Positions 3,311 through 40,889 of a DNA stretch of 64,000 bases are shown here, in pieces. Source of the DNA: Shigella phage ESh17; the sequence record ON528727; one strand, given 5' to 3'. Numbering within the stretch: the stretch's first letter is position 1; each line of letters begins with the position of its first letter. The notes beneath the pieces were generated by a model that was not told where the DNA came from, searched no databases, and saw only the letters and a program-made list of their open reading frames with translations. The position numbers were made by a program, and so were the translations under genes.

Positions 3311-3909
3311 AATACTCAGTAATGCAACTAAAAGATTTTAAAATAAAATCAATGGATGCATCGGTGCGTGCTTCTATTCGTGAAGAATTACTTTCTGAAG
3401 GGTTTAATTTATCTGAAATTGAACTTTTAATTCATTGTATTACCAACAAACCAGATGACCATACTTGGTTAAATGAAATAATCAAATCTCGTTTGGTTCC
3501 AAACGATAAACCTCTTTGGAGAGGTGTTCCAGTCGAGACTAAGCAAGTATTAAATCAAGGAATTGATGTTATTATATTTGATAAAGTAGTATCAGCTTCA
3601 TATGATAAAAATATAGCTCTGCATTTTGCTTCCGGTTTAGAGTATAACACACAAGTTATTTTTGAATTCAAAGCTCCCATGGTATTCAATTTCCAGGAGT
3701 ATGCTATAAAAGCTCTACGCTGTAAAGAATACAATCCAAACTTTAAGTTTCCGGATAGCCATCGTTATCGTAATATGGAATTAGTTTCAGATGAACAAGA
3801 AGTAATGATACCAGCTGGAAGTGTATTTAGAATTGCAGATAGATACGAGTACAAAAAGTATTCAACATACACTATCTATACTCTTGAATTTGAAGGATTT
3901 AATCTATAA
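3307..3909 (+). CDS. modA: ADP-ribosyltransferase ModA
   Basis: 200 aa; translation matches remembered T4 ModA; R-S-EQE motifs. Confidence 0.85.
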   Translation: MKYSVMQLKDFKIKSMDASVRASIREELLSEGFNLSEIELLIHCITNKPDDHTWLNEIIKSRLVPNDKPLWRGVPVETKQVLNQGIDVIIFDKVVSASYDKNIALHFASGLEYNTQVIFEFKAPMVFNFQEYAIKALRCKEYNPNFKFPDSHRYRNMELVSDEQEVMIPAGSVFRIADRYEYKKYSTYTIYTLEFEGFNL

Positions 3910-3966
3910 TGGAAGGACTTAGATTCATTATACCATGAAAGTTTTAAAGCATTTTTACATAAAGTT

Positions 3967-3996
3967 GTTTACAAGTTAAGGTAAAAATGTTATAGT
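3967..3996 (+). promoter_or_regulatory. T4 early-type promoter
   Basis: gtttac 3967-3972, 18-nt spacer, tatagt 3991-3996. Confidence 0.5.
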
Positions 3997-4032
3997 ATAA
4001 GTAGTTAACCGTCCGTAAGATGTGAGAAAAAT

Positions 4033-4779
4033 ATGAAGCTGTCTAATAACCAAATTCGTAAAATTAAACGTCGTCTAGAGCATACTCAGGCATCTGCAAA
4101 AAGACGTTCTAAAGATTTTAACTTAGACTTCAATTACATTAAGAACATTTTAGATCAGAAAGTTTGCGCTTACTCGGGAGAACCTTTTGATAATCGTATT
4201 GAAGGAGAGAAATTATCATTAGAACGTTTTGATAATAACGTTGGATACATTAAAGGGAATGTTATTGCAGTAAAGAAAAAGTATAATACATTTCGTTCTG
4301 ATTATACTTTAGAAGAGTTAATTGAAAAGCGTGATTTATTTGCTTTGCGAATTGGTCGTTCATCTGCGAAAAAAGTTCATAAACTAAATTTAGATGAAAA
4401 GAAATGGGCTAAAATCAAAAAGACTTATAATCAAATTAAAGCTATACAGAAAAAACGTGAAAACCGAATTGAACACATTTCTCAGCTTTCTAAATCAAAA
4501 CAGACCTCTGACATTAAGCTAAGAATTATAGCACTTAAAGCTCGTATTGACGGTTCTCGCATAGCAGAAGGCGCTGAAGTTGTTAAACTGAACGTTCTTC
4601 TTAAAGGTTCGGATTGGAAAATTGTGAAAAAGTTGTCAGAAGCAGAAATGCAATATGATATGTGTGATAAAATTATTCAAGGTGTAGAGCGGTATCAAAA
4701 CTTGTCTTTTATTGATAAACTTAAACTGAAAAGAGGATATCCGCTAAATTGTTCAATTTTTAAACTTATCCGAGGATAA
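4033..4779 (+). CDS. srd: Srd-like protein (248 aa)
   Basis: Size and position between modA and dda as in T4. Confidence 0.5.
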   Translation: MKLSNNQIRKIKRRLEHTQASAKRRSKDFNLDFNYIKNILDQKVCAYSGEPFDNRIEGEKLSLERFDNNVGYIKGNVIAVKKKYNTFRSDYTLEELIEKRDLFALRIGRSSAKKVHKLNLDEKKWAKIKKTYNQIKAIQKKRENRIEHISQLSKSKQTSDIKLRIIALKARIDGSRIAEGAEVVKLNVLLKGSDWKIVKKLSEAEMQYDMCDKIIQGVERYQNLSFIDKLKLKRGYPLNCSIFKLIRG

Positions 4780-38259: not shown

Positions 38260-38502
38260 ATGAGATTACAACGCCAGAGCATCAAAGATTCAGAAGTTAG
38301 AGGTAAATGGTATTTTAATATCATCGGTAAAGATTCTGATCTCGTTGAAAAAGCTGAACATCTTTTACGTGACATGGGATGGGAAGATGAATGCGATGGA
38401 TGTCCTCTTTATGAAGACGGAGAAAGCGCAGGATTTTGGATTTACCATTCTGACGTCGAGCAGTTTAAAGCTGATTGGAAAATTGTGAAAAAGTCTGTTT
38501 GA
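38260..38502 (+). CDS. hypothetical protein (80 aa)
   Basis: ORF track. Confidence 0.5.
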   Translation: MRLQRQSIKDSEVRGKWYFNIIGKDSDLVEKAEHLLRDMGWEDECDGCPLYEDGESAGFWIYHSDVEQFKADWKIVKKSV

Positions 38503-38511
38503 GGAAATATA

Positions 38512-39332
<821 letters not shown>

Positions 39333-39340
39333 AATAACGC

Positions 39341-39700
39341 GTGGCGGAAAATATGAATTTTAATTATTACCCTATTCTATTAGAAAAAGACGCGAAACAG
39401 CCAAAGTGGCAGGGTCCTCAGTTTATTAAAGGTGTCTATCAATTAGTAGTTCCTAAAGACAAGATTTATAGCAGTTGTTTCACTGAATCCGCTTGCAGTA
39501 TTTTCGGTAATAGTTCTCCGTATTGGAATTTTGACATAAAGCTGGATAGAAATATCGATATTTGGTTGAAAGCTATGGATATTGGTAATATTACGTTTGA
39601 TGAGAATAATTATCATATTATTGGTCGCTTTTCCAAACGCGGTAAAGAATTATATTTCACGCCTGAAATTGAGAGAAAATTTGATGCTAAACCGTATTGA
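39341..39700 (+). CDS. hypothetical protein in frd-td insertion (ATG 39353 likely start)
   Basis: ORF track (GTG 39341); no recognisable motif. Confidence 0.5.
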   Translation: MAENMNFNYYPILLEKDAKQPKWQGPQFIKGVYQLVVPKDKIYSSCFTESACSIFGNSSPYWNFDIKLDRNIDIWLKAMDIGNITFDENNYHIIGRFSKRGKELYFTPEIERKFDAKPY

Positions 39701-39744
39701 TTATTAGCTTCATAAAATGTATTATAATTTATATAAGGTACTAA

Positions 39745-40605
39745 ATGAAACAATACCAAGATTTAATTAAAGACATTTTTGAAAATGGTTATGAAACCGA
39801 TGACCGAACAGGCACAGGAACAATTGCTTTGTTCGGTACTAAATTACGCTGGGATTTAACTAAAGGTTTTCCTGCAGTAACAACTAAGAAGCTCGCCTGG
39901 AATGCATGTATTGCTGAGCTTCTATGGTTTATTTCCGGTTCTACCAATGTTAATGATTTACGTCTTCGCACTCATGGTAGTCTTATTCAAGGTAAAACTA
40001 TTTGGGACGATAACTATGAAAACCAGGCTAAAGACCTAGGATATCATAGTGGTGAACTTGGTCCAATTTATGGAAAACAGTGGCGTGATTTTGGCGGTGT
40101 AGACCAAATTATAGAAGTTATTGATCGTATTAAAAAACTGCCAAATGATAGGCGTCAAATTGTTTCTGCATGGAATCCAGCTGAACTTAAATATATGGCA
40201 TTACCGCCTTGTCATATGTTCTATCAATTTAATGTTCGTAACGGATACCTTGACCTCCAGTGGTATCAACGTTCGGTAGATGTTTTCCTCGGTCTTCCAT
40301 TTAATATTGCATCATATGCTACGTTAGTTCATATTGTAGCTAAGATGTGTAATCTTATTCCGGGAGATTTGATATTTTCTGGCGGTAATACTCATATCTA
40401 TATGAATCACGTAGAACAATGTAAAGAAATTTTACGTCGTGAACCTATGGATTTATGCGAATTGCAATTAAAATTTCCAGATGAATTTGATGAATGGGAC
40501 ACAGAGTCGCAGGTATTTTGGTTGAGTCAATTCGCAAAGCCGCATAATTTTGTTCTTAACAACTATGAATCACACCCTCCTATTAAAGGAAAGATGGCGG
40601 TGTAA
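39745..40605 (+). CDS. td: thymidylate synthase (intron-less)
   Basis: 286 aa contiguous ORF; active-site PCH motif. Confidence 0.95.
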
Positions 40606-40625
40606 TTTTATTATTGCGAGGATAT

Positions 40626-40889
40626 ATGATTTTACGATTTAAAGATACTTCTGGCGTTGTTCTTTTTACACTTCCTAACCCAAGCGAGTTAGAAGTTCCA
40701 GGACCAGAACAGCCTATTACCATTTATGGTAAAAAATACTATACTCATAAAATGACTCGTGAGTATTTTGATAATAAAATTTCCACAGTTAAAACTTCTT
40801 CCGATTGTTACTATGATATTACTGTATTAACGGAAAAACAATATGACGAATTATTCCAGCGTGGGCCGTCTATGCCGGGTAGTGAATAA
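40626..40889 (+). CDS. hypothetical protein (87 aa from ATG)
   Basis: ORF track (TTG 40614). Confidence 0.45.

Follow-up and report, generated by a model that had tools for sequence, protein, structure and literature searches.

Among phage nucleotide-metabolism operons, the frd-td operon is the best studied, and it belongs to a group of phages, the T-even phages, that are rich in free-standing homing endonuclease genes. A second route to small-gene turnover in these genomes involves PeSLs, which are promoter-plus-terminator cassettes described in the hyperplastic regions of T4-type phages (PMC2839356, PMC4122927), with exchange points that combine a strong sigma-70-like early promoter and a terminator stem-loop (PMC2839356). 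Here we analyzed the junction between frd and td in a 64,000-nucleotide stretch of the genome of Shigella phage ESh17 (sequence record ON528727; hereafter, the window). The window is a segment of a Tequatrovirus genome, and its frd-to-td stretch is 100% identical to that of Shigella phage ESh18.

A sequence-only reading of this DNA had proposed that a cassette of about 0.4 kb, carrying a single ORF, split an overlapping gene pair of the kind seen in T4. Our results favor the opposite polarity. The ORF is an already known and annotated gene, td.1, and the best explanation of the locus, to which we assign a probability of roughly 0.85, is that td.1 is a resident, ancestral accessory gene of the frd-td-nrdA nucleotide-precursor cluster of the Tevenvirinae, and that T4 is a deletion variant.

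Organization of the frd-td junction

On the plus strand of the window, the genes for dihydrofolate reductase (frd, 193 aa, 38751..39332, 100% identical to ESh18 frd) and thymidylate synthase (td, 286 aa, 39745..40605) are separated by an ORF of 115 aa (39353..39700); this part of the sequence-only reading is confirmed by the ORF coordinates. The ORF begins with ATG, its product is predicted to be mostly β-strand with one helix, and it matches PHROG 1928 ("unknown function") with an E-value of 8.4e-36 over residues 4-111 of 115. The product shows 100% amino acid identity to the td.1 product of phages T2, T2H and T6, encoded at the same frd-td position. The name td.1 is already annotated in the T2H and T6 records (GenBank AY262132.2 and AY262134.2), with RB32ORF229c as an alternative label in RB14, RB51 and T6, and the window ORF differs in nothing from td.1 of T2H and T6: it is the same gene. 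An in-frame GTG lies upstream of the td.1 ATG (39353), at position 39341, and is not used as a start by homologs.

The td.1 gene is preceded on the plus strand by a 20-nt leader (AATAACGCGTGGCGGAAAAT, 39333..39352) containing a weak Shine-Dalgarno-like GGCGGA. This leader is missing from the Mosigvirus phages SF and NHEP29, in which the frd TGA overlaps the td.1 ATG. Between td.1 and td lies a plus-strand spacer (39701..39744) that harbors the Shine-Dalgarno sequence of td (AAGGT, 39735-39739) and a promoter-like stretch composed of TTAGCTTCA (39704-39712) and TATAAT (39723-39728); 29 nt of this spacer are absent in SF and NHEP29. A plus-strand mini-ORF of two codons (ATG AAA TAA, 39329..39337), read from the sequence, overlaps the frd stop and resembles a copied td start (ATG AAA CAA) shut by a stop codon.

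The td gene of the window is intron-less, while the I-TevI group I intron is present in td of T4, T6 and HY03. The intron and td.1 assort independently: both occur in T6, T4 and HY03 have the intron without td.1, and the window and T2 have td.1 without the intron. Within td, a patch at 39925-40014 (td nt 181-270) is 63% identical between the window and phage MLF4 over 90 nt, against 93-100% identity in the rest of the gene, a case of small-scale mosaicism within the gene of a core enzyme.

The duplicated junction sequence that the sequence-only reading had described is real, and can be refined to an exact 9-bp direct repeat, TAAATGAAA, whose two copies lie 416 bp apart and are each preceded on the 5' side by TATATAA. 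The left copy (39326..39334) includes the frd stop codon, the last codons and stop of frd (TAT AAA TGA) being part of it, and the right copy (39742..39750) includes the td start codon. In T4, which keeps a single copy, frd and td overlap (ATGA) with no DNA between them, in agreement with the sequence-only reading. In-silico removal of the 416 bp between the repeats yields the T4 junction base for base over at least 90 nt, and the predicted product is also identical to the junction of HY03, another empty-junction phage. Relative to T4, the segment is indeed a discrete single-ORF indel, of 416 bp and not of the 412 bp first reported. When flanks of this layout are placed at random in the AT-rich window, about 2% of placements share a 9-mer, and the coincidence is thus unusual but not extreme. 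The recurrence of the motif is explained by its role as the functional signal for the frd stop and the start of the following gene.

Filled sites contain two copies of TAAATGAAA and empty sites one, a pattern that fits target-site duplication as well as deletion between pre-existing repeats, so that the direction of change within Tequatrovirus falls short of strict proof. The locus could accordingly be envisaged as an ancestral T4-type overlapping junction that, in the T2-type lineage, was entered by a ~0.4-kb cassette, either a mobile element or a captured gene, with duplication of the motif. Besides the repeat signature, such an event would account for the relic-like mini-ORF at the left junction and for a 9-nt AT-rich inverted repeat, TATATAAAT/ATTTATATA (pair I12), that flanks the segment. 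This inverted repeat, however, is a short, AT-rich and nearly palindromic sequence of a type that chance is expected to produce, the direct repeat is a functional stop/start signal, and the ends of the inserted unit would have to vary, since it measures 416 bp in the window and 363 bp in Mosigvirus, with differing leader and spacer. Constant terminal inverted repeats at each occurrence, as at the ends of transposable elements, were not found, the 9-nt AT-rich pair being the only candidate. Furthermore, td.1 is the sole ORF of the segment, which contains no transposase or recombinase gene, and its product lacks domains of the transposase, integrase or endonuclease type as well as conserved acidic, His or Cys residues. 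With neither such domains, nor conserved residues of catalytic type, nor fixed ends, the suggestion of a small mobile element is not supported.

Distribution of td.1 and polarity of the indel

A tblastn search with the td.1 product identified a homolog in 580 phage records, with amino acid identities of at least 99% in 265 of them, 95-99% in 83, 90-95% in 14 and below 60% in 218. The gene is thus present at 95% identity or above in 348 records, against 32 with a T4-type empty junction, as counted with a 45-nt probe specific to that junction; these are counts of database records, many of them redundant, and not of independent lineages. The 32 empty-junction records comprise T4 and its laboratory derivatives, RB55, RB59, vB_EcoM_112, HY03, SG1, G28, F1, FN, JEP6, FL12, FL18 and G2133. 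Of the 514 records that match the T4 junction flanks, 60 were sampled evenly and gave a similar picture, with td.1 in 39, an alternative segment of about 206 bp in 11, an empty junction in 5 and other or partial arrangements in the remaining 5. About two thirds of Tequatrovirus-level records carry td.1, which is the majority state there. The expectation that the segment would be absent from other T4-like genomes is therefore contradicted by its presence in T2, in T6 and in the majority of Tequatrovirus. By the account of the sequence-only reading itself, insertion would be untenable if the same ORF occupied this position in most T4-like genomes, and this is the situation revealed by the record counts and by the occurrence of the gene in at least nine other genera.

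Homologs of td.1 with 26-47% identity are located directly 3' of frd, usually overlapping its stop codon. They follow frd in Jiaodavirus (Mineola), Kanagawavirus (PEi26 and Entb_45), Winklervirus (CHI14), Roskildevirus (Cronus), Gelderlandvirus (STML-198), Moonvirus (Moon), Kagamiyamavirus (EcS1) and Klebsiella phage Biddle. A homolog also comes directly after frd in Mosigvirus. In the window, the gene lies between frd and td on the same strand, an arrangement repeated in 11 other loci from nine or more genera. It recurs in a distant T4-like IMG/VR contig (L029) whose Frd and Td are only 27.5% and 31% identical to those of the window and in which a td.1-family gene comes directly after frd. 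In this contig, about 1 kb (3421-4450) separates the td.1-family gene from td. Searches with single distant members yielded one useful locus, this contig, and two spurious ones (L030 and L031), and two such searches returned nothing.

A word-indexed protein search returned few td.1 matches, and a family HMM detects homologs down to 26% identity. An exhaustive profile search of 1.84 billion proteins recovered only 44 cluster representatives, almost all of them 95-139 aa long. The td.1 family is small, with named members that all come from T4-like phages. The td.1 homolog is often part of a tandem pair: in eight loci, the small ORF that adjoins it is a paralog according to the family HMM (E 1e-16 to 2e-6), located at L004 2814-3188, L010 2314-2685, L008 2164-2643, L009 2287-2634, L005 2317-2676, L003 2817-3173, L007 2309-2656 and L006 1559-1993. 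The paralogs form a longer subfamily, distinguished by an insert (W-P/A-L...PTI.EY..NP) that follows the conserved Trp. A single copy is present in the window, the family HMM finding no paralog elsewhere in it.

The presence of homologs at the same position in at least nine genera implies long residence, and the existence there of diverged homologs and paralogs, reaching to the contig with 27.5% Frd identity, argues against a cassette that entered the T2-type lineage, as does the rarity of the empty state. When all six frames of the complete T4 genome were scanned with the family HMM, filters being off, no td.1-family member was detected (best E 0.6). Given the few empty-junction records and this lack of a family member elsewhere in the T4 genome, T4 is taken to be the deletion variant, and, because synteny is deep and the empty allele rare, the ATGA overlap of T4 is best read as a derived deletion between two TAAATGAAA copies. 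The null allele of T4 and a few relatives equals a precise 416-bp deletion that fuses frd and td into the ATGA overlap, and its putative origin is illegitimate recombination or slippage involving the two 9-bp copies.

Two observations run counter to long residence of td.1. The left-junction ATG AAA TAA could be a relic of a td start, as insertion into a T4-type junction would leave, and the junction is empty in Gaprivervirus, Slopekvirus and some Mosigvirus, which requires several losses or some gains. Weighing these points, we consider insertion of td.1 into a T4-type junction unlikely. With respect to the earlier proposal of an accessory gene acquired by short-repeat recombination, the recombination component stands, in that it best explains the polymorphism and in that lateral exchange is detectable, but acquisition by insertion is not supported; likewise, the deep synteny and the rare empty allele favor a deletion in T4 over a cassette that split an overlapping gene pair.

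Alleles, lateral exchange and selection

The junction behaves as a slot with multiple alleles. Within Mosigvirus, it is empty in ESh27 and contains td.1 in SF, NHEP29 and Shf125875, and the filled SF junction is distinguished from the empty ESh27 one by a precise indel of 363 bp that has TAAATGAA at its borders. A third Tequatrovirus allele, found in Yersinia phage fPS-65 (L027 548-754) and in about 18% of sampled records, consists of a 68-aa ORF unrelated to td.1. This allele, absent from the window and from T4, is joined to its neighbors at ATGA and TAATG, its start codon (ATG) sharing bases with the frd TGA and its stop codon (TAA) with the td ATG. Homologs of the 68-aa ORF are found just upstream of td (L008 2648-2854 and L005 2673-2879), with identities of 81% to the ORF of Biddle and 68% to that of Entb_45. 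Other unrelated small ORFs occupy the frd-td slot in two more distant phages, Krischvirus phiS (L021 2176-2445, 89 aa) and Acinetobacter phage Minot (L020 2033-2278, 81 aa); both were tested as remote td.1-family members and rejected. The slot can hence be pictured as holding td.1, td.1 and its paralog with or without the 68-aa ORF, the 68-aa ORF alone, or nothing, and co-infecting phages may swap these alleles through recombination events that resolve at the conserved stop/start overlaps.

Exchange of this kind is apparent for td.1. Nucleotide identity between the window and the Mosigvirus phages SF and NHEP29 is 50-70% across frd and rises to 96-98% exactly at the td.1 ATG, and synonymous divergence between the window and NHEP29 is significantly lower in td.1 (dS 0.66) than in frd (1.87) or td (1.73; Fisher p = 0.0003). 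The td gene of SF is no nearer to that of the window than the ESh27 td is. In view of the jump in identity at the td.1 ATG and the low dS of td.1, the gene has been exchanged between genera, with breakpoints at gene borders. This clear movement between Tequatrovirus and Mosigvirus, with a breakpoint at a gene boundary, is also what an inserted cassette might be expected to display. Identity to the SF and NHEP29 copies (L013 and L018) is uneven along the gene, at 96-98% towards the ends (39342-39461 and 39642-39701) and 80-85% in the middle (39462-39641), which suggests either a mosaic history within the gene or extra constraint on its ends.

The dN/dS ratio of td.1, calculated with the Nei-Gojobori method for five phages, is 0.02-0.05, lower than those of both frd (0.06-0.24) and td (0.07-0.22) at the same loci, and the window and NHEP29 copies differ by 28 synonymous and 9 nonsynonymous substitutions. 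As judged from these substitutions, td.1 is shown to be a real protein-coding gene under strong purifying selection. The same pattern already refutes the notion that the ORF arose by chance or is a decaying remnant, within a segment acting as a mere spacer or regulatory region for td. Even though T4 does without td.1 and its ATG is preceded by a weak Shine-Dalgarno sequence, the low dN/dS, the HMM homologs down to 26% identity and the confidently predicted fold leave that notion with practically no weight.

The regulatory content of the junction was assessed over positions 38400-40800. A sigma-70 scan of this range yielded no enrichment of promoter-like sites (14 vs 10.0 ± 3.5 expected), and no terminator-like stem-loop was found on its plus strand. 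The spacers fold no better as RNA than shuffled sequences (z = +0.35 and +1.2), and contain no exact MotA box or late promoter (TATAAATA). The td.1-td spacer is only weakly promoter-like, a promoter in it being without statistical support. In the T2-type arrangement, td would rely on its own Shine-Dalgarno sequence downstream of this weakly promoter-like spacer, and the T4 deletion may have rendered td translation dependent on coupling to frd.

These results bear on whether the alleles of the slot have been exchanged through repeated promoter-plus-terminator cassettes, as in PeSL-type modular shuffling. The outcome would be alike, namely the indel or replacement of small ORFs between close relatives, and the promoter-like character of the td.1-td spacer, weak as it is, points in the same direction. 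Nevertheless, PeSLs are absent from the boundaries of every allele examined, and the SF and fPS-65 alleles lack spacer elements altogether. The repeat itself spans just 8-9 bp and is a translational, not a transcriptional, signal. Together with the missing terminator, the spacer folding and the unenriched promoter-like sites, this makes shuffling through such cassettes very improbable at this junction.

The Td.1 protein and comparison with known systems

The three-dimensional structure of Td.1, whose prediction had been suggested by the sequence-only reading, was modeled with a pLDDT of 90.5 and consists mostly of β-strands, with one helix. Foldseek comparison of the model to BFVD returned only uncharacterised T4-like phage proteins, and no significant relative was found among solved structures, OB-fold domains included. 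A PDB sequence-profile search with Td.1 likewise gave nothing significant; a match to TagH over a partial stretch (E 0.003) was judged spurious. The absence of a recognized motif in the initial reading is borne out by Pfam (E <= 10), NCBIfam and PADLOC, none of which matched td.1, one paralog or one distant homolog. In an alignment of 45 sequences, the only invariant residues are W19, G91, K95 and G97, with Q16, G27, Y29, F93 and F102 conserved in at least 90% of sequences; no D, E, H or C is conserved.

GenBank annotations of td.1 are heterogeneous, and its mislabels encompass "putative homing endonuclease", "putative dihydrofolate reductase", "reductase" and "putative glucose-1-phosphate adenylyltransferase". 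In the HY03 record (KR269718), frd and td exon 1 carry portal and prohead core protein labels.

The first of these td.1 labels, which appears in the BASEL-collection phages AugustSocin, TadeuszReichstein, AndreasVesalius and ValerieMcCarty04, implies that td.1 is a free-standing homing endonuclease gene spreading by cleavage of td.1-less genomes near the frd/td junction, and the presence/absence polymorphism of the frd-td locus would agree with such behavior. The protein, however, gives no Pfam match even at E <= 10 and no NCBIfam match, and its length of 115 aa is below that of every annotated Seg, Mob and I-Tev endonuclease of T4, save for the truncated or defective mobA and I-TevIII. Neither GIY-YIG, HNH, LAGLIDADG nor PD-(D/E)xK residues are conserved in the family alignment, whose invariants are W, G, K and G, and a dN/dS of 0.02-0.05 with deep vertical conservation is atypical of homing endonucleases. 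Spread by homing is extremely unlikely on these grounds, and the label is unsupported.

Literature searches on td.1, RB32ORF229c and the frd/td context returned no account of td.1, and none of the libraries or papers searched assigns it a function; td.1 has never been studied because T4 lacks it. Since the invariant positions are structural residues plus a single Lys, Td.1 is most likely, with low confidence, a putative small non-enzymatic binding protein. Modulation by Td.1 may concern either the thymidylate/folate arm of phage dNTP synthesis or some host factor affecting this arm, although our confidence in this role is also low. We would expect, again with low confidence, that a single prereplicative transcript serves for the co-expression of Frd, Td.1 and Td, and that Td.1 is dispensable under T4 laboratory conditions. 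The family is linked to frd across the Tevenvirinae, down to a Frd identity of 27.5%, but this linkage is weak evidence of a functional connection, because gene order is broadly conserved among T4-like phages. A broader proposal, that Td.1 is an unrecognized regulatory or protective part of phage thymidylate/folate metabolism that was missed because T4 is a natural null mutant, is speculative and on present evidence rather doubtful. If correct, Td.1 could, for example, modulate Frd, Td or the dNTP-synthesis complex, or inhibit a host enzyme, or a host defence, directed against nucleotide pools.

Taken at face value, the finding is ordinary, in that an annotated gene is missing from T4. It does illustrate that T4 is not the ancestral template, and that DNA seemingly "extra" with respect to T4 can reflect a deletion in T4 itself. 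Furthermore, the frd/td junction provides a compact case of accessory genes that are swapped or deleted precisely at stop/start overlaps, with neither mobility functions nor a regulatory cassette. Td.1 is a strongly constrained protein, specific to T4-like phages among named matches, encoded inside a well-studied operon; T2 and T6 carry its gene, and T4 constitutes a natural knockout.

The locus shares with the homing endonuclease genes of T-even phages (seg, mob and I-TevI) the polymorphic presence of a single gene between conserved neighbors, and in T4, T6 and HY03 the I-TevI intron resides in the adjacent td. In contrast to seg, mob and I-TevI, td.1 encodes no nuclease domain or catalytic residues, and it displays deep vertical conservation and strong purifying selection. 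With PeSL-mediated shuffling (Arbiol et al. 2010, PMC2839356; Comeau et al. 2014, PMC4122927), it has in common the turnover of small ORFs at short repeats on gene borders. The frd-td repeat differs from those cassettes in being an 8-9-bp stop/start overlap that lies inside a conserved nucleotide-metabolism operon.
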